Source of the DNA: an uncultured Chloroflexia bacterium
GTDB taxonomy: Bacteria; Chloroflexota; Chloroflexia; Thermomicrobiales; UBA6265
Direction: 5' to 3'
Length of the DNA: 64,000 bases
NCBI GenBank assembly: GCA_963762985.1
Contig: CAVXMK010000014.1
Coordinates: 282,625 to 346,624, forward strand
Shown: positions 2,008-47,914 of the stretch, one piece after another
Layout of the letters: every line of letters starts with the position of its first letter
Numbering within the stretch: position 1 is the stretch's first letter
Translations under genes and position numbers: made by a program
The notes under the pieces: model-generated
What the model saw: only the letters and a program-made list of their open reading frames with translations
Databases searched by the model: none
What the model was told of the DNA's origin: nothing

Positions 2008-3792
2008 ATGGACCAGTCGTCGTTCGACGAGTTAACACGTGTGCTTGGCGGAGCCGCATCGCGACGTCGTGCCCTGGGCGCGGTCATTGCCGCGGCGCTT
2101 GCCGGGAGAACGGCCGCGGAAATCATGGCCGCGCCCAGGAAGAAAGGCCGTGGCAAGGGCAAGGGTAAGGGCAAGAAAAAGAACAAGGGCCAGGGGAATA
2201 CTGGCAACGGGAATGACAATGGCAAGGGTAGCTGCGCCGGCTCGCCGCTGAGGCCCGGTCAGGACTTCCTGCGCTGCGATTTCTCCGGTCGAAACTTGCG
2301 GGGGCAGGATCTCCACTCCTCGTCGTTCAAGGATGTCGACTTTTCGTTCGCCGATCTCTGCGGCGTCGACTTTCACTCGGCGAGCTTCACCGAGACGGAC
2401 TTTATCGGAGCCAATCTCACCGACGCGAACTTCGACCAGTCCTCGCACGACGAAGTCAGCTTCGCCGAGGCGAATCTCGAAGGCGCCTCCTTCAAGGTGG
2501 CGACCTTCAGTGAGGTCGATTTCTCCGGGGCCAATCTCGCCCGCGCCAATTTCCGTGGCGCGACGCTCGACGAGGTCGATTTCTCCGGCGCTACCTTCTG
2601 CCAGACGATTCGGCCTGACGGCAGCACCGACAACCGCAATTGCGATATCTGCGACAACCTCTGCGGCACCTGCCAGAACTGCGACGAGGAGGACTGCGAA
2701 GCCCCCGACTGCTGCTCCGACCCGGAGACGGGCGACGGGGTATGCGTCGATACCGACACCGATCCACTGCACTGCGGAGCGTGCGGCGTGGCGTGCGGAG
2801 CCTCGTTGAACCCGTGCATCACCATCGAGTGCATCGATGCTGCATGCACCCCCGTCGAGGCCGCGGACGGCACGACCTGCGAGGAGGGCGAAGAGGCTGG
2901 CGTCTGCTGCGCCGCGGGCGATACGGTCACCTGCGTCGTCGGCGGCATCTGCTGCTCCAGCGCGCAGTGCGATGAGGGCGATACCTGCTGCAGCGGGCAG
3001 TGTGTCGATCTCCAGACCGATCCTGACAATTGCGGTGGCTGTGGCCCCGAGTTTGCCTGCGACGCAGGCGAAACCTGTTCCCAGGGCCAGTGCGTGTCGG
3101 ATGAGTGCGACAGCGGCGAAGTCCTCTGCGACAGCGTCTGCACGCCGGGCGTCTGCTGCGCGGATGACCAGTCCGGGCCGCAATGCCCCGCGGGGTTCAC
3201 CTGCATCGCCGGCGGCTGCGTCGGCGAGGGGCAGTTCCGCTTCGTGCTCAGGTGGGACGAGAACCCGCGGGATCTCGACACCCACGTCTGGTTGCCGCCA
3301 GCGACGCCGTACCACATCTATTTCGTCGACGAAGGCAGACTGGACCAGTTCCCCTTTGCGGAGCTGGACATCGACGACGTGACGAGTTTCGGTCCGGAAA
3401 CCGTCACGATCGCCCAATTGTTCGAGGGAACGTACCTCTACGCCGTGCACCTGTTCGCCGGCACGGGCACCATCGGCACGTCGGGCGCCGTGGTCGAGGT
3501 CTACGAGGGTGCGAACCTGGTCAACACCTTCCCTGTTCCCACGAACCTCTCCTGGGATCCGGACAACGGCCAGAACGTCTGGTGGAACGTCTTCAGCCTC
3601 ACCGTCGACGGGCAAGGGGACACGACGATCACCCCGATCAACACCGCCTCGGCGGATCCCGCGCCGTTCCCGGATACGCTGTCGCGTCGCGCCAGCGCCG
3701 AAAAATCCAAAAAGCCGGCCGATGGCGACCGCAACCGCAAGCGCGGCCGAGGCCGTGGCAAGGGCAAGAATCGGGGTCGTGCGCGGCGGTGA
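2008..3792 (+). CDS. Secreted multidomain protein: RR leader, polybasic tail, pentapeptide repeats, Stig1-like Cys modules, YfaP/DUF2135-like C-terminal domain, basic C-tail
   Basis: ATG at 2008 is preceded by GGGGGAG. Leader is MDQSSFDELTRVLGGAASRRRALGAVIAAALAG and the tail is KKGRGKGKGKGKKKNKG. A(D/N)LxG/F pentapeptide runs are present, along with the motif C-V-D-x-D-T-D-P-L-H-C-G-A-C-G-V-A-C. Start chosen inside track ORF 1930..3792. Confidence 0.85.
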   Translation: MDQSSFDELTRVLGGAASRRRALGAVIAAALAGRTAAEIMAAPRKKGRGKGKGKGKKKNKGQGNTGNGNDNGKGSCAGSPLRPGQDFLRCDFSGRNLRGQDLHSSSFKDVDFSFADLCGVDFHSASFTETDFIGANLTDANFDQSSHDEVSFAEANLEGASFKVATFSEVDFSGANLARANFRGATLDEVDFSGATFCQTIRPDGSTDNRNCDICDNLCGTCQNCDEEDCEAPDCCSDPETGDGVCVDTDTDPLHCGACGVACGASLNPCITIECIDAACTPVEAADGTTCEEGEEAGVCCAAGDTVTCVVGGICCSSAQCDEGDTCCSGQCVDLQTDPDNCGGCGPEFACDAGETCSQGQCVSDECDSGEVLCDSVCTPGVCCADDQSGPQCPAGFTCIAGGCVGEGQFRFVLRWDENPRDLDTHVWLPPATPYHIYFVDEGRLDQFPFAELDIDDVTSFGPETVTIAQLFEGTYLYAVHLFAGTGTIGTSGAVVEVYEGANLVNTFPVPTNLSWDPDNGQNVWWNVFSLTVDGQGDTTITPINTASADPAPFPDTLSRRASAEKSKKPADGDRNRKRGRGRGKGKNRGRARR

Positions 3793-6034: not shown

Positions 6035-9000
6035 ATGGACAACGCTGCATTCGACCGGTTGGCGCGACTGCTGGGGAGCGGCGCGTCGCGGCGCCACACG
6101 TTGCGCGCGCTGATCACCGCGGCCCTGGTCGGGGGCACGGCCGACGAGCTGCTGGCCAAAGACAAGAAGAACCGCGCCAAGAACCGCAAGCAGGGCAACG
6201 ACCGGGACGGCAACAACGACAAAGACAAAGATAAGAACAAGGACCGGCGCAATGGCCGTGGCGGCCAGGCCAATGCCGAAGCGAAAAAGAAAAATCAGAA
6301 CAAGAACAAGCAGAAGCGCAAGAAGAAAAAGAAGAAGAACAGCAACGGCGGCAATAGCGGCGGCAACAGTTGCGCCGGAACCCCGCTGCAGCCCGGGCAG
6401 GACTTCGTCGATTGCGATTTCTCCGACGCCAATCTGCGCGGGGAGAATCTCAAAGGCTCCCTCTTCAAGAATGTCGACCTCACCGATGCCGATCTCTGCG
6501 GCGCCGATCTGGAATCGTCCAGCTTCGCCGACACTACACTGGTCGACGCCAATCTCACTGACGTCAACCTCGACTCGTCGTCGCACAGCAAGGGCGACTT
6601 CTCCGGCGCCAACCTCACCAACGCCACCTTCCGTGTCGCCACCTTCAGCAAGGTCGACTTCTCGGGAGCCGACCTCACCGGCGCCGACTTCACCGGCGCC
6701 ACCCTGGATGACACCGACTTCGCCGGCGCCGTCTTCTGCCGCACCATCCATCCCAACGGCAACGTCGACAACCGCGACTGCGACATCTGCGACAACGAGT
6801 GCGGTCTCTGCGAAGACTGCGACGACGAGGACTGCACCCCGCCCGACTGCTGCCCGAACCCGGAGGGACCAGGCGGCATCTGCGTCAATACCGACACCGA
6901 CCCGCTCAACTGCGGCGGCTGTGACGCCGCCTGCTTCACCAACCTGTCCAACGCCTGCGTCGATGGCGAGTGCGTCTGCGGCAACGAGCCGGAGTGCTCC
7001 GGTGGCGAGACCTGCTGCCGTGGCGAGGGCGGTGGCGCCACCCGCTGTATCGACACGGACACCGATCCCCTGCACTGCGGCGCCTGCGACGAGGCGTGCC
7101 TGATCCCCCTCAACCCATGCCTCTCCGTCGAGTGTCAGGGCGGTCAGTGCGTCGAAGTCGGCGCCGCGGACGGGACGCCCTGCGAACTCGAGGGCGACCC
7201 TGGCGTCTGCTGCGCCGCCGGCAGCTCCGTCACCTGCGTCGTCGGGACCGAATGCTGCTCCAACGCCCAGTGCGACTCCGGCGAGGCCTGCTGCGAAGGG
7301 CAGTGCATCGACGTCGAGGACGACCCCAACAACTGTGGCGGCTGCGACGTCATCTGCCTGACCCCGACAAACCCGTGCCTCACCAACGAGTGCATCGAGG
7401 GCGGATGCGTAGACGGGACGCTCTCGGACGGCACGGAGTGCGCGTTCGTTGACGACACCGGCGTCTGCTGCGCCTCGGGTGGGACCAGCACCTGCGTCTT
7501 CGGCGCTGAGTGCTGCACCGATGCGCAGTGCGGCACGGGCCAATCATGCTGTGGCGGCCAGTGTCTGAACACCCAGACCGACTTCGATCGCTGCGGGTCA
7601 TGCACCAACCAATGCCCGGCTACCAAGGCCGACGCCTGCGTTGGCGGGGACTGTGTCTGCGGCGAGGAGCCGGAGTGCAACGGCAACCAGACCTGTTGCC
7701 CCGGCGAGGGCGGCAATCCGGCCTCCTGCCTCAACCTCAATAACGACACCCTCAACTGCGGCGCCTGCGGATTCGCCTGCCTGATCCCAACGAACCCGTG
7801 CCTCGCCGTCGAGTGCCAGGAGGGCGGATGCGTCGAGGTGCCCGTACTGAATGGCTCGGCCTGCGCGGTGGGCGAAGTGGGGGGCATCTGCTGCGCCTCG
7901 GGCGAGACGTCCGCCTGCATCGTGGGGGCGGAATGCTGCGACAGCTCGGTCTGTGAGGCGACCGAAGCCTGCTGCGAAAATCAGTGCATCGACGTTCAGG
8001 ACAACTTCGACAACTGCGGTGAGTGCGGCAACAGTTGCACGGACTCGGTGAATCAATGTTTCCACCGCGACTGTGTCCAGGGCGAGTGCCAAACCCTCCC
8101 CGACGAGGATGGCGAGCCGTGCTTCGCGGGCGAAGAGGGCATCTGCTGCGCCTCGACCCCAACCACCTCCATCTGCATCGGCGGCGGCCAGTGCTGCACC
8201 GACCTCGAATGCCCGGAGGGCGATAGCTGCTGCGATAACACCTGCTTCGAGACCAGCTCCGATTTCGACCACTGCGGGGGCTGTGACGGCTGCGACCCCG
8301 ACTTGGCAGACACCTGCGTCGAGGGCACGTGCGTCTGCGGGACCACGGGAGCCGCATGCGGGGCCGGCGAGACCTGCTGCAACGGCCAGTGCGTCGACAC
8401 CGACACCGACACCGACAACTGCGGCACGTGCGGCAACGCCTGCGATCCCCCGTTGAACTCGTGCAATACCGTCCTGTGCCTCGAAGGTACGTGCAACAAC
8501 TTCGCGGACCCCGACGGCACGATCTGCGTGGAGGGTCAGGACGAGGGCGTCTGCTGCTTCGACGACAACGCCGCCGTCTGCCTGGCGGGCGCCCAGTGCT
8601 GCTCCGACTCCGGATGCGACGTCACCGAAGCCTGCTGCGACAACCAGTGCGTCAACCCCAATACCGACTTCGACCACTGCGGCATTTGCACGAACGCCTG
8701 CATAGAGGGGAAGGCCGACGCCTGCTTCAACGGCCAGTGCGTCTGCGGGTCCGAGTTCCAATGCTCGGAAACCGAGACCTGCTGCAACGGCCAGTGCGTG
8801 GACACCAGCAATGATCTTGAGAACTGCGGCTCCTGTGGCGAGACATGTGGTGCAAACGAAACGTGCGTCGAGAGCGGGTGCGTTTGCCCGGGCATCCCCT
8901 GCGAGGGTCAATGTCTGGCGGAAGGTCCCGACGTCTGCTGCCTCCTCGCCGACTGCGAGACTCGCCTCTGCTATTTGCTTCTCGGCTGCAACGGCAACGT

Positions 9001-9088
9001 CTGCGAATACCAACAGCTCGCCGACAACACCGATTGCGGCTTCGGCGGTACGTGTGAAGGCGGCGTGTGCATCGGGCAGTCTGAATAA
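6035..9088 (+). CDS. Giant secreted Cys-rich protein: RR leader, about 75-aa polybasic tail, pentapeptide repeats, about 10 Stig1-like Cys modules
   Basis: Leader MDNAAFDRLARLLGSGASRRHTLRALITAALVGG. Tail is KDKKNRAKNRKQG...KKKNQNKNKQKRKKKKKKNSNGG. The pentapeptide block is collinear with the 2008 paralog. The motif D-x-x-(N/H)-C-G-x-C-x-x-x-C occurs about 12 times. GGGGGAG precedes the ATG. Confidence 0.9.
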   Translation: MDNAAFDRLARLLGSGASRRHTLRALITAALVGGTADELLAKDKKNRAKNRKQGNDRDGNNDKDKDKNKDRRNGRGGQANAEAKKKNQNKNKQKRKKKKKKNSNGGNSGGNSCAGTPLQPGQDFVDCDFSDANLRGENLKGSLFKNVDLTDADLCGADLESSSFADTTLVDANLTDVNLDSSSHSKGDFSGANLTNATFRVATFSKVDFSGADLTGADFTGATLDDTDFAGAVFCRTIHPNGNVDNRDCDICDNECGLCEDCDDEDCTPPDCCPNPEGPGGICVNTDTDPLNCGGCDAACFTNLSNACVDGECVCGNEPECSGGETCCRGEGGGATRCIDTDTDPLHCGACDEACLIPLNPCLSVECQGGQCVEVGAADGTPCELEGDPGVCCAAGSSVTCVVGTECCSNAQCDSGEACCEGQCIDVEDDPNNCGGCDVICLTPTNPCLTNECIEGGCVDGTLSDGTECAFVDDTGVCCASGGTSTCVFGAECCTDAQCGTGQSCCGGQCLNTQTDFDRCGSCTNQCPATKADACVGGDCVCGEEPECNGNQTCCPGEGGNPASCLNLNNDTLNCGACGFACLIPTNPCLAVECQEGGCVEVPVLNGSACAVGEVGGICCASGETSACIVGAECCDSSVCEATEACCENQCIDVQDNFDNCGECGNSCTDSVNQCFHRDCVQGECQTLPDEDGEPCFAGEEGICCASTPTTSICIGGGQCCTDLECPEGDSCCDNTCFETSSDFDHCGGCDGCDPDLADTCVEGTCVCGTTGAACGAGETCCNGQCVDTDTDTDNCGTCGNACDPPLNSCNTVLCLEGTCNNFADPDGTICVEGQDEGVCCFDDNAAVCLAGAQCCSDSGCDVTEACCDNQCVNPNTDFDHCGICTNACIEGKADACFNGQCVCGSEFQCSETETCCNGQCVDTSNDLENCGSCGETCGANETCVESGCVCPGIPCEGQCLAEGPDVCCLLADCETRLCYLLLGCNGNVCEYQQLADNTDCGFGGTCEGGVCIGQSE

Positions 9089-11799: not shown

Positions 11800-12138
11800 T
11801 CAATCCATCGTGCCGGGCACGCAGAATCCCCCGTCGCAGACGAGATCGTCTTCGCCGTCGCAGCAATCGCGCGTATCGAGGCAGCGCTTGCCCTGGGTGC
11901 TGCACCGGCAGCGGCCCTTCTTCTTGCCCCGGCGCGTGCGGCAGCGCCCGGAGCAGCATTGTCCGTTCCGCTTGCAGCGGCTGGTGACGCCCCGACACCC
12001 GTTGCTTTGCGCGGTCGATGGCGTCGCGTCGAGCGCACCGCCAGCGGCCGAGGCCACGGCCACGGCAGCGAGCATCTCTCGCCGGGTCCGCGCTCGAGCC
12101 AGCGCGGTCAGCATCGCGTCGAACCGGTCATTGCTCAC
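11800..12138 (-). CDS. Small secreted knottin-like Cys-rich protein with FD..L..RR leader
   Basis: GTG at 12138 is preceded by AGGAGG (12145-12150) at 6-nt spacing. Leader VSNDRFDAMLTALARARTRREMLAAVAVASAAGG. Cys pattern C-x6-C-x5-CC-x3-C-x10-C with a basic loop RTRRGKKKGR. Confidence 0.7.
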   Translation of the reverse strand: MSNDRFDAMLTALARARTRREMLAAVAVASAAGGALDATPSTAQSNGCRGVTSRCKRNGQCCSGRCRTRRGKKKGRCRCSTQGKRCLDTRDCCDGEDDLVCDGGFCVPGTMD

Positions 12139-12392
12139 GTGAGACCTCCTCGCCAGGCGACTCCGGTAACGAAAAACCAGCCAATTTTGCCCCAATCCCC
12201 AAATTGGGCTCTATTATGACTTGCTGAAACGCTGCGTAAGTGTCACTATGCCACTGACCCGCGTATCGCCGCGCATCGGCCCCATCTGGGCCGGAGGAGC
12301 AGTGGAGGTAAACAGCGCCAGGTGGGCGCGAATTGCTACGCCGTTCGCGGGTAAACACGACACCCCTCGTGGTGGAGGGAGGGAGCAGCACG

Positions 12393-12641
12393 ATGGACAA
12401 CCGCTATCCGGATCGACTTGCCACCCCGCGGCTGCCGCGCCGTCCCACGCGCCGCGCGCTGATCGCCGGCGCGGCCGGGCTCCTGCTCGCCGCGGGTTCC
12501 GCCGCCGGGTTCCTCATCGAGGATGCCGAGGCGCGCCGCGTTCGCAAGCGGCACCGCAACCGCAACCACAATCGAAGCCAGGAAAACAGTATCAGCATCC
12601 CCGGCCAGCCTGGGGAACCCGGCGAGGATGGCGAGCCGTAG
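12393..12641 (+). CDS. Small RR-leader protein with polybasic tail and short collagen-like end
   Basis: ATG preceded by GGAGGGAGGGAG. RRPTRRALIAGAAGLLLAAG leader, AEA|RRVRKRHRNRNHNRSQEN tail, C-terminal GQPGEPGEDGEP. Confidence 0.65.
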   Translation: MDNRYPDRLATPRLPRRPTRRALIAGAAGLLLAAGSAAGFLIEDAEARRVRKRHRNRNHNRSQENSISIPGQPGEPGEDGEP

Positions 12642-43619: not shown

Positions 43620-44807
43620 ATGAACGACGCACGTTTCGCCACCCTCATCCGCGCCCTGACGGGTGGGGCGGTGACCAGGCGTACGCTTGGCCAGGGCCTC
43701 GCGGGTGGCGCCATCGCGGCCGGTCTTGCCCAGTTCAGGTTGGACACCATCGGCGCCAGGCGCCGGAAAAAGAAGCGAAAGAAAGGCAAGGGCAAGAAGC
43801 GGCGCGGCGGCGGCAATGGCGGCGGGAACAGCGATCGTTGCCAGTTCGAGATCTGCGAAGGGGCGTGCGTCGATCTCGACACTGACGCGAACAACTGCGG
43901 CGCCTGCGGCGACGCCTGCCCGGACGGTTCGCCCTGCGTTGGTGGCTTGTGCGCGTTCGCCGCCGGCGGGGAAGGCGACGGAGAAGGCGAGTTCGACCGG
44001 CCATTCGGCATCGCATTCGACAGCAACGGATTCGGCTACGTCGCCGACGCCAACAACCGGCGTGTCCACCGATATTTGGTTGGCGATTTCTTTGGAACGT
44101 TCGGCGAGTTCGGTGAAGGCGACGGGCAATTCTTGCGGCCAATCGGCGTGGCGGTCGTGAACGAGACCGGCGAAGTCTTCGTTAGCGACTCCGATCTCAG
44201 CCGGATCCAGAAGTTCGACGCGAACGGCGACTTCCTGCTCGGCTTCGGGAACTTCGGCAACGGCTCCGGTCAGTTCAAGAACCCGCTCGCGCTGGCCTTC
44301 GACCAACAGGCGAACCAAGTGTTCGTGGCCGACACGAACAACCACCGCATCTCTCGCCTCAGCGCCACGCTCTTCCCCCTGGAGCGGTTCGGGCAATTCG
44401 GCAGCGGCGAGGGCCAGTTCAACGGCCCGCAAGGCATCGCCATCGACGCGAATCGAAACATCTTCGTGGCCGACACCGGGAACAACCGCATCCAGGTCTT
44501 CGACCTGCGGCGGGAATTCGTGCGGGCGTTCGGCGAGCAGGGCGCCGGGCCGGGGCAGTTCAACGGGCCGACCGGCGTGGCGGTCGATGACCAGGGGAAT
44601 CTCTTCGTCGTCGACACCGGGAACAACCGCATCCAGCAGTTCTCGGTCGATGGGACGTTCCGCAAAACCTTTGGCCGCGCCGGCACCGGGCTCGGCGAGT
44701 TCGACGAGCCGTTCGGCATCGGGATCGACGGCAGCGGGTTCCTCAATGTCGTCGATACGAGGAATGAGCGCGTGCAGTTCTTCATCCCGGCGCGATTCCT
44801 CGACTGA
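43620..44807 (+). CDS. Secreted NHL-repeat beta-propeller protein 1 (RR leader, polybasic tail, one Stig1-like Cys module, six NHL blades)
   Basis: GGAAGGA precedes the ATG. MNDARFATLIRALTGGAVTRRTLGQGLAGGAIAAGLA, then IGA|RRRKKKRKKGKGKKRRGGGNGGGN, then CVDLDTDANNCGACGDAC. Blades such as FNGPQGIAIDANRNIFVADTGNNRIQVF. Confidence 0.9.
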   Translation: MNDARFATLIRALTGGAVTRRTLGQGLAGGAIAAGLAQFRLDTIGARRRKKKRKKGKGKKRRGGGNGGGNSDRCQFEICEGACVDLDTDANNCGACGDACPDGSPCVGGLCAFAAGGEGDGEGEFDRPFGIAFDSNGFGYVADANNRRVHRYLVGDFFGTFGEFGEGDGQFLRPIGVAVVNETGEVFVSDSDLSRIQKFDANGDFLLGFGNFGNGSGQFKNPLALAFDQQANQVFVADTNNHRISRLSATLFPLERFGQFGSGEGQFNGPQGIAIDANRNIFVADTGNNRIQVFDLRREFVRAFGEQGAGPGQFNGPTGVAVDDQGNLFVVDTGNNRIQQFSVDGTFRKTFGRAGTGLGEFDEPFGIGIDGSGFLNVVDTRNERVQFFIPARFLD

Positions 44808-44862
44808 TCGCGGTTGGAGGCGCCCACGGGCGCCCCGATGTCGGAAGCCTCAGGAGGACATT

Positions 44863-46095
44863 GTGGAGACAACGCCATTAGCCAATCTCGTGCGCGTCGT
44901 CATGGATGGCGTCTATACGCGGCGCGGCCTTGGTCAGCGGTTCAGCTCTGCTGCGCTCGCTTCCGCGCTTGCCCTGACGGTGGAAGACATCGACGCCCGC
45001 CAGCGCGGCGGCAAGAAGCGTCGCCGAAAAAGGAAGAAGCGCGGCGGCAACAACGGCGGTGGGAACGACCGCTGCCCATTCGAGCGCTGCGGAGGGCAAT
45101 GTCTCGACCTCGACAACGACCCAACCAACTGCGGAGCGTGCGGGCGCGCATGCGACATGGACGCCGTCTGCGTCGCCGGCTTCTGCGCGGTCGCCGCTGG
45201 CAGCCGCGGCAGCGGCGGCAAGCAATTCGATGGGCCGTTCGGCGCCGGCGTCACAAGCGACGGTCTCGTCCTCGTTGCGGACTCGAACAACCGGCGCATT
45301 CAGATCACCGGCGGCGGCAGCTTCTTCGGTTCGTTTGGCGAGTCCGGCGAAGGCGACGGGCAGTTTCTGGACCCGGCGGGCGTGGCGGTCGGCCCGGGGA
45401 CGGAAATCTACGTGACCGACATTGCGCGCCACGACATTCAGCGTTTCGGCTCCGGTCAACGATTCGATGTCGGGACGGGCGGGTTCGGCTCCGAACTGGG
45501 CCAATTCAACACCCCGACAGGCGTCGCCGTCGACCAAGCCACCGGCGAGGTGTGGGTCGCCGACAGAAACAACCACAGCCTTCAGGTGCTCAGCGCCGAC
45601 CTCGTCGCGCGCCGGCGGATCGGTCGTCTCGGGAGCGGCGACGGCGAGTTCAACGAGCCGTTCGGGGTCGCATTCGACGACGTCAACGGTCACGTCGTCG
45701 TGGCCGACAGCGCGAACAACCGCATCCAGATCCTCGACCGGGAGGGGCGCTTCGTCCGCGCGTTCGGCCGCCAGGGGACCGGGAACGGCGAGTTCGACAT
45801 CCCGGTGGCGCTCGCGCTCGACACGGCCGGGGACATCTTCGTGGTGGACCTCTTGAATGACCGGGTCCAACAGTTTTCCCCCGAGGGAACGTTTCGCAAG
45901 GCGTTCGGCCGAACCGGGAGCGGAATCGGCGAGTTCAGCCTGCCGGTCGGCATCGCCATCAGCTCGCGGGACGTCATCACCGTCGTCGATCAAGGCAACG
46001 ACCGCATCCAGGTCTTCGTCCCGGCGGGGTCGGACTTCGAAGCCCAGTCTCGCGCGAAGCGTCGGTGCCAAGGGCGCCAAGGAGTTGAGAGATGA
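44863..46095 (+). CDS. Secreted NHL-repeat beta-propeller protein 2
   Basis: GTG at 44863 lies 5 nt after AGGAGG. VETTPLANLVRVVMDGVYTRRGLGQRF.., then IDA|RQRGGKKRRRKRKKRGGNNGGGN, then CLDLDNDPTNCGACGRAC, then six NHL blades. Confidence 0.85.
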   Translation: METTPLANLVRVVMDGVYTRRGLGQRFSSAALASALALTVEDIDARQRGGKKRRRKRKKRGGNNGGGNDRCPFERCGGQCLDLDNDPTNCGACGRACDMDAVCVAGFCAVAAGSRGSGGKQFDGPFGAGVTSDGLVLVADSNNRRIQITGGGSFFGSFGESGEGDGQFLDPAGVAVGPGTEIYVTDIARHDIQRFGSGQRFDVGTGGFGSELGQFNTPTGVAVDQATGEVWVADRNNHSLQVLSADLVARRRIGRLGSGDGEFNEPFGVAFDDVNGHVVVADSANNRIQILDREGRFVRAFGRQGTGNGEFDIPVALALDTAGDIFVVDLLNDRVQQFSPEGTFRKAFGRTGSGIGEFSLPVGIAISSRDVITVVDQGNDRIQVFVPAGSDFEAQSRAKRRCQGRQGVER

Positions 46096-47345
46096 GACAT
46101 GCACGGTTCGATTCGCTGGTCCGTGAGTTGGCGGCTGGTTCGCTCACGCGCCGCGGCGTCGCTCAGGGGTTCGGCGGAGCGGTGTTGGCCTCCACACTTG
46201 CCCTGACTGGCTTGGCCGAGACCGAGGCCAAGCGGCGTCGTGGGAAGAAGCGTCGCAAAAAGAGAGGCAGCACGCGCCGCGGCGGCAACGACCGTTGTCA
46301 GTTCACTCGCTGCGACGGGCGGTGCGTCAACTTCGAAACCGACCCGGACAACTGCGGCGCCTGCGGCGACGCCTGCCCGGACGATCTGCCGTGCGTCGCC
46401 GGCCTCTGCGTGCTCGCGCTCGGCGGTCCCGACGATGATTTCGCCGGCCTCGGTAGCCCGGGCGGCGTCGCCGTGAACGCCGATGGGGTCGGCGTGGTCG
46501 CGGACAGAACCAACGAGCGCATCTTGCGCTTCCAGCGCGGCGAGCGGATCGAGTTCCTCGGCTCGTTCGGCGAGCGCGGCGAGGAAGACGGCCAGTTCCT
46601 GGAGCCGTCCGGCGTGGCGATCGACGGCGACGCCATCTTCGTGACCGACGCCGACCGGCACCGCATCCAGCGCTTCGACCTCCAGGGGAATTTTGAAGCA
46701 GCGGGCGGGAGCTTTGGCTCCGGGCTCGGGCAATTCGATTCCCCGCAGGGCATCGCCATCGATCCCCCGACCGGTGAGCTGTTCGTGGTCGATACGTTCA
46801 ACCACAGCGTGCAGCGGCTCGCCGCCGACTTCTCGCCGCTGAGCCGGATCGGACGCGAGGGCAACGGGAACGGCGAGTTCAGCTTTCCGTCCGGGATCGC
46901 CATCGACGGCGACGGCGACCTGGTCGTGGCCGATGTCCTCAACCACCGCATCCAGGTGCTCGACCGCGACGGGAACTTCATTCGCGCCTTCGGCCGCCGA
47001 GGGGACGGCGCCGGCGAGTTCAACGAGCCGCTCTCCGTGGCGGTCGACGCGGCCGGCGACATCTTCGTCGTCGATAACCAGAACCGCGGCATCCAGCGCT
47101 TCACCGGCGACGGGCAGTTCGTCAAGACGTTCGGCCGCCAGGGAACGGGGGTGGGTGAGTTCGAGTTTCCGTTCGGCATCGCCGTCGATTCCCTGGGGAT
47201 CATCACCGTCACCGATGTGGGAAGCCACCCCCTCCAATTGTTCTTCCCGGCGAACGTCTTCGCGGCGGGAGAAGGGATCGCAACCGCGAAAGATGAACTG
47301 CTCGGGGACCGTCCCGCGAGGAAGCAACGAAGGAGGACATCGTGA
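46092..47345 (+). CDS. Secreted NHL-repeat beta-propeller protein 3
   Basis: ATGA start/stop overlap with the previous gene. MRHARFDSLVRELAAGSLTRRGVAQGF.., then TEA|KRRRGKKRRKKRGSTRRGGN, then CVNFETDPDNCGACGDAC, then six NHL blades. Confidence 0.9.
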   Translation: MRHARFDSLVRELAAGSLTRRGVAQGFGGAVLASTLALTGLAETEAKRRRGKKRRKKRGSTRRGGNDRCQFTRCDGRCVNFETDPDNCGACGDACPDDLPCVAGLCVLALGGPDDDFAGLGSPGGVAVNADGVGVVADRTNERILRFQRGERIEFLGSFGERGEEDGQFLEPSGVAIDGDAIFVTDADRHRIQRFDLQGNFEAAGGSFGSGLGQFDSPQGIAIDPPTGELFVVDTFNHSVQRLAADFSPLSRIGREGNGNGEFSFPSGIAIDGDGDLVVADVLNHRIQVLDRDGNFIRAFGRRGDGAGEFNEPLSVAVDAAGDIFVVDNQNRGIQRFTGDGQFVKTFGRQGTGVGEFEFPFGIAVDSLGIITVTDVGSHPLQLFFPANVFAAGEGIATAKDELLGDRPARKQRRRTS

Positions 47346-47914
47346 ACGCATCCCATTTCGGCGATTTTGCTCGGGTGCTGACGGACGGCGCGATCACGCG
47401 GCGGGCGGTCATGCGGGGCATGGCCGGGGCGCTTGGCGCGGCTGGGCTATCGCATGCGGGATTGACCAGTCTCCAAGCCAAAAAGGGTAAGCGGCGCAAG
47501 CAACCATCGCCGGTGAACCGGTTCGGCTGCCGCAACGTCGGTGTCGCGTGCTCGAGCGCCAATCAGTGCTGCTCCGGCATCTGCGAGGGCGGGCGCGGTA
47601 AGGACAAGAACGGCAAGAAGCGGAGAAGGACGTGCCGGGCGCACGACACGGGGGGCTGCAAGGTTTCCCAGGATTCCTGCTCGACGAGCACGAACTTCAC
47701 CTGCACCACGATCACCGGTGAGGCAGGATTCTGCCACCTGACCACCGGCAACGCCCCCTACTGTGCGTTCGATGGGATTGATTCGGAGTGCACGAGGGAC
47801 GAGGACTGCATTGACCTTTGCGGCCCCCAGGCGGCCTGCAGCGTCTGCGCCGAGCCGGGGTTGGCGGCGTTCCGCTTCTGCGCCGGTCCCAGCAGATGCG
47901 AAGGTTTTGCATGA
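47342..47914 (+). CDS. Secreted knottin-like Cys-rich protein with the same leader and polybasic tail
   Basis: GTGA overlap with the previous gene, with GGAGG upstream. VNASHFGDFARVLTDGAITRRAVMRGMAGALGAAGLS, then LQA|KKGKRRKQPS. Pattern C-x6-C-x5-CC-x3-C-x16-C with basic loop RGKDKNGKKRRRT, then a second Cys-rich half. Confidence 0.8.
   Translation: MNASHFGDFARVLTDGAITRRAVMRGMAGALGAAGLSHAGLTSLQAKKGKRRKQPSPVNRFGCRNVGVACSSANQCCSGICEGGRGKDKNGKKRRRTCRAHDTGGCKVSQDSCSTSTNFTCTTITGEAGFCHLTTGNAPYCAFDGIDSECTRDEDCIDLCGPQAACSVCAEPGLAAFRFCAGPSRCEGFA

Follow-up and report, generated by a model that had tools for sequence, protein, structure and literature searches.

A 64,000-nucleotide stretch of Chloroflexota DNA (the window) carries at positions 43620-47914 a tightly packed operon of four genes. 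Three of them encode NHL-propeller paralogues that each contain a Stig1-like cysteine module, and the fourth encodes a cysteine-rich protein of 190 residues. According to an initial annotation, the N-termini of these four proteins and of three further ones in the window resemble one another upstream of a twin arginine (RR), that is, in the n-region of a putative signal peptide for twin-arginine translocation (Tat). The n-region of such signals is commonly seen as a variable positive stretch, and Tat itself as a route for folded, often cofactor-bearing proteins. We asked whether the conserved block is real, which proteins carry it and what it may be for. All seven N-termini were located in the window (at 2008, 6035, 12138, 43620, 44863, 46092 and 47342), and a GGAGG-like ribosome-binding site lies 6-10 nt 5' of each of the seven starts, those at 46092 (ATGA) and 47342 (GTGA) overlapping the stop codon of the preceding gene.

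A hidden Markov model (HMM) of the leader was built from the seven window sequences and iterated once over the whole genome, which led to 218 open reading frames (ORFs) with at least 20 bits and 266 with at least 15 bits. This confirmed that about 235 genes in the 6.7 Mb genome begin with M-D-x-x-R-F-D-x-L-(A/T)-R-x-L-x4-(S/T)-R-R, and that the likeness among the seven N-termini is not due to chance and is far more widespread than first reported. Phenylalanine is residue 6 in 199 of the 237 ORFs with an assignable start codon; the first arginine of RR is residue 19 in 158 and the spacing from F to RR is 13 in 165 of these 237. Residue frequencies were taken from the 166 leaders in the canonical register, a subset whose selection itself fixes F6 and RR19-20, and amounted to 82% for D2, 67% for R5, 96% for D7, 65% for L9, 76% for A/T10, 78% for R11 (plus 11% K), 67% for L13 and 76% for S/T18, with L23, L26 and G28 as consensus after RR. 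When the genome was searched with an HMM of residues 2-15, which contains no RR (at least 10 bits, crude coding-frame filter of third-position GC content (GC3) above 0.75), RR and a hydrophobic stretch came after the block in 157 of the 158 filtered matches, and the remaining one is truncated where its reading frame ends; both features were also present in 38 of the 46 matches failing the GC3 filter. The initial annotation had named two outcomes that would count against it, namely the motif on cytoplasmic proteins without RR and h-region and a loss of the similarity with correct start codons, and the motif withstood both tests. Apart from the one frame-end case, the block was found on no filter-passing frame without an export signal, and the starts are upheld by the Shine-Dalgarno signal, rich in purines, that the 166 leader genes share at -12 to -8, as well as by independent gene callers: nearly all of the best 150 profile matches in public gene calls align from residue 1, with the same Met.

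What unites the proteins behind the leader is cysteine. The median Cys content of the cargo is 13.5%, compared to 0.45% in other Tat-like substrates, at least six Cys are present in 87% of the cargos, and even Cys counts outnumber odd ones by 190 to 32 (86% even). Similarly, at least six Cys were found in 83 of 88 complete cargos from other genomes. Among the 304 Cys-rich ORFs of the genome, 174 carry the leader. In 66 more an RR leader scores too low for the HMM cut-off, and the majority of those listed have a degenerate or variant copy of the block; the rest resemble cytoplasmic metal-binding proteins or spurious ORFs, and Sec-type signals are nearly absent. The leader marks a Cys-rich secretome, a unifying feature of the cargo that the initial annotation had not spotted, and ordinary Tat substrates of the same genome are without the motif. 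The proposal that different payload classes share the leader held up: the 216 cargos form 93 BLAST clusters, 77 of them singletons, with 87 of the 216 in one loose cluster of Cys-rich modules, and the domains that could be named are NHL, Stig1-like, PMP-repeat beta-helix, collagen-like, DUF1554 and CAP, most cargos having no Pfam match. Their median length is about 220 amino acids (aa), reaching 1465 aa, propellers included, and no redox-cofactor domain was found on them in domain scans. Aliphatic and aromatic residues make up 15% of the cargo compared to 30% of other proteins. From their composition the cargos appear to be of the disulfide type, and without their disulfides they would be hydrophilic and have little structure. 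Small, unstructured, hydrophilic proteins are the only type of unfolded cargo that Tat is known to accept (Richter et al. 2007, in the summary of PMC13673990).

The signal itself has twin-arginine character. RR is near-invariant though the same proteins use lysine freely: of 139 leaders picked by residues 2-15 only, 130 have RR as their first basic pair, two have RK, one has KR and none has KK, compared to 713 K and 635 R in the tails of the same proteins. The general Tat consensus Z-R-R-x-Φ-Φ (PMC13673990) fits the canonical-register leaders, with S/T18 in 76%, A/V/L22 in 75% and L/V/I23 in 86%. The best 15-residue hydropathy window of the h-region averages 1.76, close to the 1.69 of canonical Tat-like leaders of the same genome. 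A basic tract begins at a median of 25 residues past RR, and before it alanine stands at -1 in 110 of 187 leaders (59%) and at -3 in 68 of 187 (36%), an enrichment that is predicted to reflect an AxA site for type I signal peptidase. Of the translocase, one TatC gene, two TatA genes and a TatB-like gene are present in the genome. With the best 150 candidates scored per search, the cut-off of the curated Tat model TIGR01409 was passed by some motif leaders (C25:140808, C14:524460 and C15:257740 among them), and most motif leaders, including the four of 43620-47914, were not among the listed matches of TIGR01409 and PF10518.

From the near-invariant RR, the h-region and the cargo, the leader is very probably a selected subclass of Tat signal for Cys-rich proteins. 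The overall explanation that we favour, with moderate confidence, would be a specialised, lineage-specific and cleavable class of Tat signal that serves as export tag of a Cys-rich secretome and uses the ordinary TatABC. In such a leader Met1-Asp2 would be followed by a 13-residue amphipathic helix (residues 3-15), a 4-residue Gly/Ser-rich break, S/T-R-R-x-Φ-L and a weakly hydrophobic h-region of Ala, Gly and Leu; an AxA signal-peptidase site would lie about 25 residues past RR, and the Lys/Arg run that is usual in this genome would become the mature N-terminus. Export would proceed through the cell's single ordinary TatABC, whose ordinary substrates carry no such helix. An amphipathic helix before RR had already been suggested in the initial annotation, and as a prediction it is borne out by two approaches. 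An AlphaFold2 model was built from 101 aligned leaders of the window and of other genomes, with the 46092 leader as first sequence. It has a helix at residues 3-15 with a predicted local distance difference test score (pLDDT) of about 82, a break at residues 16-19 and a second helix at 20-40 that spans RR and the h-region. For residues 2-14 the hydrophobic moment is highest at 100-120 degrees and exceeds that of shuffled sequences by 10 standard deviations; F6, L9 and L13 are on one face of the helix and R5, D7 and R11 on the other. We suggest that this helix might act in cis at the cytoplasmic face, either extending the signal helix across TatC and TatB or lying on the lipid surface, as a 13-residue N-terminal extension projecting to the TatBC periphery or to the lipid. 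It could raise the affinity for the membrane and TatBC and keep highly charged precursors without a hydrophobic core off Sec and the signal recognition particle until Tat is engaged. The role in cis is a tentative proposal, with a chance that we put slightly below even.

Several points weigh against the favoured explanation. The conserved D2 and D7 are odd in an n-region that is supposed to bind anionic lipids, and the fixed distance of F6 from Met1 suits a binding pocket, be it of a trans-acting factor or of TatC, as well as or better than a lipid surface. Among the 150 candidates scored per search, the cut-offs of TIGR01409 and PF10518 appear to be reached by only a minority of the leaders, the outward passage of 8-12 positive charges against the membrane potential would be energetically awkward, and the genome of the window is 75% complete and comes from an uncultured organism.

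An alternative, close to the leader-binding chaperone suggested in the initial annotation, is that the helix is the docking site of a dedicated trans-acting factor for Cys-rich precursors on their way to Tat. Such a factor could be a holdase that binds the leader, an oxidoreductase by which the cysteines are kept reduced or are oxidised in advance, or a proofreading chaperone. The fixed register from Met1 (F6 in 199 of 237) and the conserved charged residues D2, D7 and R11 look like a recognition epitope, and the motif is specific to a cargo class and not general to Tat. There is also precedent, as chaperones of the TorD/DmsD/NapD type as well as DnaK and SlyD bind Tat signals, according to PMC3316669 and the reference list of PMC13673990. 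Nevertheless, neither the TorD/DmsD family (PF02613; NapD and HyaE were not searched) nor a PqqD-type protein (PF05402) gave a match in the 75%-complete genome. No chaperone-like family is enriched within three genes of the 235 leader genes or in 105 loci of other genomes, where only STAND-type regulators recur. We regard a dedicated factor as possible and rather unlikely, and the dedicated recognition step or distinct route that the initial annotation had inferred from the block was not borne out in a genome with a single TatC, no TorD/DmsD or PqqD match and no conserved neighbour of the leader genes. Candidates for a dedicated part of the translocase were also rejected. TatC is present as one copy in most genomes, alike in those with none and those with more than 100 leaders, which gives no support to a second TatC as dedicated translocase. 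TatA/B proteins number two in most genomes with many leaders and three to four in those with at least 100, and three were also counted in three genomes with 0-2 leaders, so that the high counts look like an effect of gene dosage or genome size.

The content of oxidase genes can be counted in favour of a trans-acting factor: DsbB was found in none of 41 family genomes searched, and VKOR is also missing from 12 of the 21 genomes in which 12 or more leaders were counted, including several that are over 93% complete, compared to 4 of the 20 genomes with at most six leaders. VKOR is thus present in 9 of 21 and 16 of 20 genomes respectively (Fisher p of about 0.02), an inverse and weak relation to leader count that is only a lead, since the 41 genomes are related and some are incomplete. 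As a co-occurring partner of the leader VKOR was rejected, the association being inverse, weak and confounded by relatedness. A search for Erv1/ALR gave no match, but was run without a positive control and is hence uninformative. A variant of the trans-acting idea, which we consider a little less probable still, is that the helix is the handle of a cytoplasmic step for Cys-rich precursors, in which a factor would keep them reduced and unfolded, or would oxidise them, and then hand them to ordinary Tat. If so, a cargo-class-specific targeting route would be layered on Tat, providing a natural setting in which tolerance of unfolded or disulfide-dependent cargo evolved, and a different oxidation pathway would be the reason why 12 of the 21 genomes with many leaders have neither DsbB nor VKOR.

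Another alternative would assign the n-region no function at all: the similarity might be merely inherited from a single ancestor gene, the mature parts having diverged fast, as in conotoxin superfamilies. The one loose BLAST cluster with 87 of the 216 cargos can be read in this way, and so can the clustering of the genes, as 142 leader genes have another within three genes compared to 46 expected. However, between leaders from different cargo clusters the aa identity drops from 47% over residues 1-20 to 22% over residues 21-40, where the h-region lies, then to 12% over residues 41-60 and 8% in the mature part beyond, and residues 1-20 are still about 34% identical once the selection-fixed M1, F6, R19 and R20 are removed. 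Where leader residues are identical, they use the same codon with a frequency of 0.44, compared to 0.42 expected from codon usage; codons of conserved residues track genome-wide usage, and both codon families of Arg, Leu and Ser are present. The synonymous sites are saturated, and therefore selection acts on the peptide, and neither recent duplication nor a nucleic-acid element explains the conservation. Conservation at the DNA or RNA level was rejected, and upstream of the 166 leader genes only the Shine-Dalgarno signal and a C at -1 are shared, with no other common element. Besides, the remaining cargos fall into 92 BLAST clusters, 77 of them singletons, with unrelated folds, and the geometry of the leader is kept across many genera. 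Mere inheritance is consequently very unlikely.

Slightly less probable again is that the leader is not an export signal but a reverse signal-anchor, which by the positive-inside rule would keep both cargo and basic tract cytoplasmic, or an ordinary Sec signal. The C-terminal flank of the h-region is indeed far more positive than the N-terminal one, and Cys-rich modules can be zinc-binding. This is opposed by the near-invariant RR in proteins that otherwise use K freely, by an Ala/Gly-rich h-region whose weak hydrophobicity equals what canonical Tat signals show, by the enrichment of AxA directly before the basic tract, by the even Cys counts in 86% of the cargos and by cargo families of secreted types (Stig1, CAP, collagen-like and PMP repeats). 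In addition, in other genomes a basic tail was found on 39 of 105 motif leaders, and 63% are without any basic tract. Least probable of all, and close to negligible, is a docking motif of the leaders of ribosomally synthesised and post-translationally modified peptides, read before export by the recognition element of a modifying enzyme: the FNLD/FDLD boxes of lanthipeptide leaders do resemble F-D-x-L, but the genome shows no PqqD-type recognition element, no modifying-enzyme family recurs beside the leader genes here or in the 105 loci of other genomes, and cargos of about 220 aa in the median and up to 1465 aa, including propellers, are not short core peptides.

Compared to known systems, the leader is closest to canonical Tat signals (TIGR01409, PF10518; S/T-R-R-x-F-L-K), with which it shares the near-invariant RR, preceded by a polar residue and with two hydrophobic residues behind x, the weak h-region, the AxA site, basic residues after the h-region and a TatABC in the genome. 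Basic residues in this position are a known feature by which Tat signals avoid Sec. It differs in a 17-residue conserved n-region (M-D-x2-R-F-D-x-L-A/T-R-x-L) with fixed spacing to Met1 and RR, in two conserved acidic residues within this n-region, in its restriction to Cys-rich cargo, in a basic c-region of 8-12 charges in this genome, and, as it appears, in that only a minority reaches the cut-offs of the curated models. A long Tat leader with a family-specific conserved helical sequence upstream of RR is also found in redox enzymes (TorA/TorD, DmsA/DmsD and NapA/NapD) and the small subunits of [NiFe] hydrogenases, where a partner in the cytoplasm reads the pre-RR sequence prior to export. 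Such leaders, however, belong to one enzyme family each and have a cognate chaperone gene, which as a rule lies in the operon, whereas here one leader stands on dozens of unrelated cargo families without cofactor, with neither a TorD/DmsD gene nor a conserved neighbour. In carrying a conserved n-region block on an otherwise ordinary signal, and this on many different cargos, the leader resembles ESPR (PF13018), YSIRK-G/S and KxYKxGKxW, blocks that define a sub-route or alter export kinetics and not the translocase. Those are Sec signals of Proteobacteria and Firmicutes (ESPR of autotransporters and two-partner secretion), while the leader described here is a Tat signal of Chloroflexota; there is no sequence similarity to any of the three, and the likeness is one of analogy only. 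Pfam scans of 12 leader-bearing proteins gave no match to ESPR (PF13018), and the cargos are not autotransporters. With 15% hydrophobic residues and dependence on disulfides, the cargos would also recall the unstructured hydrophilic proteins exported by Tat in the work of Richter et al. (2007), which, in the summary given in PMC13673990, concerned artificial substrates in E. coli, whereas such export would be a natural main use here, with about 235 genes in one genome.

The leader occurs mostly in uncultured soil Thermomicrobiales. Within the same family it was found in 32 of 40 sampled genomes, with 1 to at least 108 copies each (best 150 candidates scored per genome), and within the order in 34 of 81 genomes, with none in the seven genomes of one genus of about 3 Mb and none in the two of another of about 4 Mb. 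In the rest of the phylum it is only sporadic. When 185,579 species genomes were scanned for an exact DNA pattern of the leader, more than 105 loci emerged, and the 80 records listed are nearly all labelled Thermomicrobiales, Sphaerobacterales, 'uncultured Chloroflexia' or metagenome-assembled genomes of Chloroflexota. A profile search of 1.84 billion cluster representatives (50% identity) gave at least 11,853 proteins at E ≤ 0.001. This threshold corresponds to about 41 bits by our own estimate and recovers 44% of this genome's own leaders. On the leader profile ordinary Tat signals of the genome reach at most 33 bits compared to 41-64 bits for the leaders, and because of both values the 11,853 proteins can be taken as specific and as a lower bound. 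No Pfam or NCBIfam model spans the block, and no description of the motif was found in the published literature covered, which excludes subscription journals.

What appears to be new here, within a known type of Tat signal, is the specificity for a Cys-rich secretome. If the favoured explanation is correct, a sharply defined n-region helix would send hundreds of disulfide-dependent proteins without a hydrophobic core per genome through the ordinary Tat system, and this across a bacterial group, which would provide a natural test case for the quality control of unfolded hydrophilic cargo by Tat and for information on the cargo class upstream of RR. For annotation, the leader profile may serve as a specific marker by which more than 11,000 unnamed protein clusters become recognisable as secreted and their start codons correctable, and it flags what would be a very large reservoir of small Cys-rich secreted proteins in soil Thermomicrobiales.

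The genome contains further types of leaders. Canonical Tat leaders of the SRRxFLK type are numerous; they are found on substrate-binding proteins and enzymes, lead to a mature start like A-Q-(E/D)-A-T-P and have neither the F-D block nor a basic tail. Some binding-protein Tat leaders carry a different pre-RR block, '...RxGR(I/L)(S/T)RR', which in examples such as C10:272796, C11:88235, C24:49012 and C14:681139 reads approximately (D/E)-x-(L/F)-R-x-G-R-(I/L)-(S/T)-R-R. Since these leaders have a block of their own, conserved n-regions as such are not unique. The initial statement that generic Tat n-regions are not conserved to this degree was right in that the pre-RR block exceeds a generic n-region, but overstated in view of the binding-protein leaders. 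A polybasic tail follows 94 of 111 motif leaders and 118 of 1061 other N-termini with RR and a hydrophobic stretch, the latter being a noisy class with many non-Tat ORFs; motif and tail are strongly linked in this genome, yet are separable features. Polybasic-tailed leaders without the motif include a haemoglobin-like protein and three of four Gly-rich proteins. Two leader subclasses, as first proposed with the haemoglobin and all four Gly-rich proteins on the motif-less side, do exist, but one Gly-rich protein was misplaced: its gene at 12312-12640 of the window (+ strand; C14:294936) begins with MDNRYPDRLATPRLPRRPTRR (MDNRYPDRLA), a degenerate block keeping D2, D7, L9 and A10.

Three further observations concern the form of the leader. 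A short variant, M-D-x3-F-D-A-W-T-R-R-R-F-G, has RR right after the F-D block, at residues 11-12 (C5:82862-83551, C5:87821-88465, C1:141950-142303 and C27:76808), and is limited to one family of small Cys-rich proteins (KKRCKKLGxxCxxGGKRKCCGxLxC). At C6:34780-35742 and C25:31111-31785 a normal F-D block is followed by R-L-R in place of RR ('...LTRLRSLKGLAGG'); these may be natural non-RR variants or decaying copies. Several leader-bearing ORFs (C15:633843-635348, C14:722882-724270 and C11:9179-9787) turn mid-way into Arg/Pro-rich, nonsense-like sequence, which suggests frameshifts, from pseudogenes or assembly errors.

In the window, the first gene of the operon (43620..44807, + strand) encodes an NHL-propeller protein with a Stig1-like Cys module and has the ribosome-binding site gggaagga upstream. 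Its N-terminus consists of the leader MNDARFATLIRALTGGAVTRR (43620-43682; 35 bits in the leader HMM), the h-region, IGA and the polybasic tract RRRKKKRKKGKGKKRR. The paralogue at 44863..46095 (+) starts with GTG and has the weakest copy of the motif, VETTPLANLVRVVMDGVYTRR (VETTPLANLV...), with 31.5 bits in the seven-sequence model compared to 17 bits in the iterated genome-wide model, which agrees with its initial listing as the weaker seventh member. It is followed by the third propeller paralogue (46092..47345, +; leader MRHARFDSLVRELAAGSLTRR), whose ATG overlaps the upstream stop, and by the 190-aa Cys-rich protein (47342..47914, +; leader VNASHFGDFARVLTDGAITRR), whose GTG start does the same and which has no Pfam or NCBIfam match. 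The other three leader genes lie outside the operon: at 2008..3792 (+) a protein of 594 aa that has leader MDQSSFDELTRVLGGAASRR, a polybasic tail and a body rich in repeats and in Cys, at 6035..9088 (+) a 1017-aa protein with leader MDNAAFDRLARLLGSGASRR and an array of Cys-rich modules, and at 11800..12138 (- strand) a knottin-like protein of 112 aa, likewise rich in Cys, which starts with GTG, carries leader VSNDRFDAMLTALARARTRR and is without a polybasic tract directly after the signal.

Among the Tat genes, TatC is at C27:12370 (gene range C27:12289-13116), TatA at C10:353717 and C15:246736 and the TatB-like gene at C9:282505. The first tatA (C10:353717-353848) precedes a signal peptidase I gene (C10:354238-354906) by about 400 bp, both being on one strand, and the second, at C15:246736, lies directly upstream of two leader-bearing genes. 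TatC proteins of the order have a 30-40-residue N-terminal extension that is Lys/Pro-rich in the family of the window and acidic (EPEPEPE) in another family (C27:12289-13116, loci L116-L145). Co-variation of this extension with the leader was rejected, as its composition tracks phylogeny and not leader count.

Apart from other leader genes, those that recur beside the leader genes in this genome encode ABC transporters, further secreted proteins and members of two large families of regulators, PAS kinases and STAND. The large STAND regulators have NB-ARC and TPR domains, preceded in some by an adenylate-cyclase-like N-terminus, and number about 87-104 paralogues in the genome (C8:651690-654569, C10:297432-300590, C14:40315-42960 and about 85 more; elsewhere L033:3418-6321). 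The family is about twofold enriched beside leader genes, with 25 cases within three genes compared to 11.5 expected, and a STAND-type regulator with an adenylate-cyclase-like N-terminus is the sole recurrent neighbour in the loci of other genomes, in 23 of 105. Members of this family may be dedicated regulators of the genes for Cys-rich secreted proteins.

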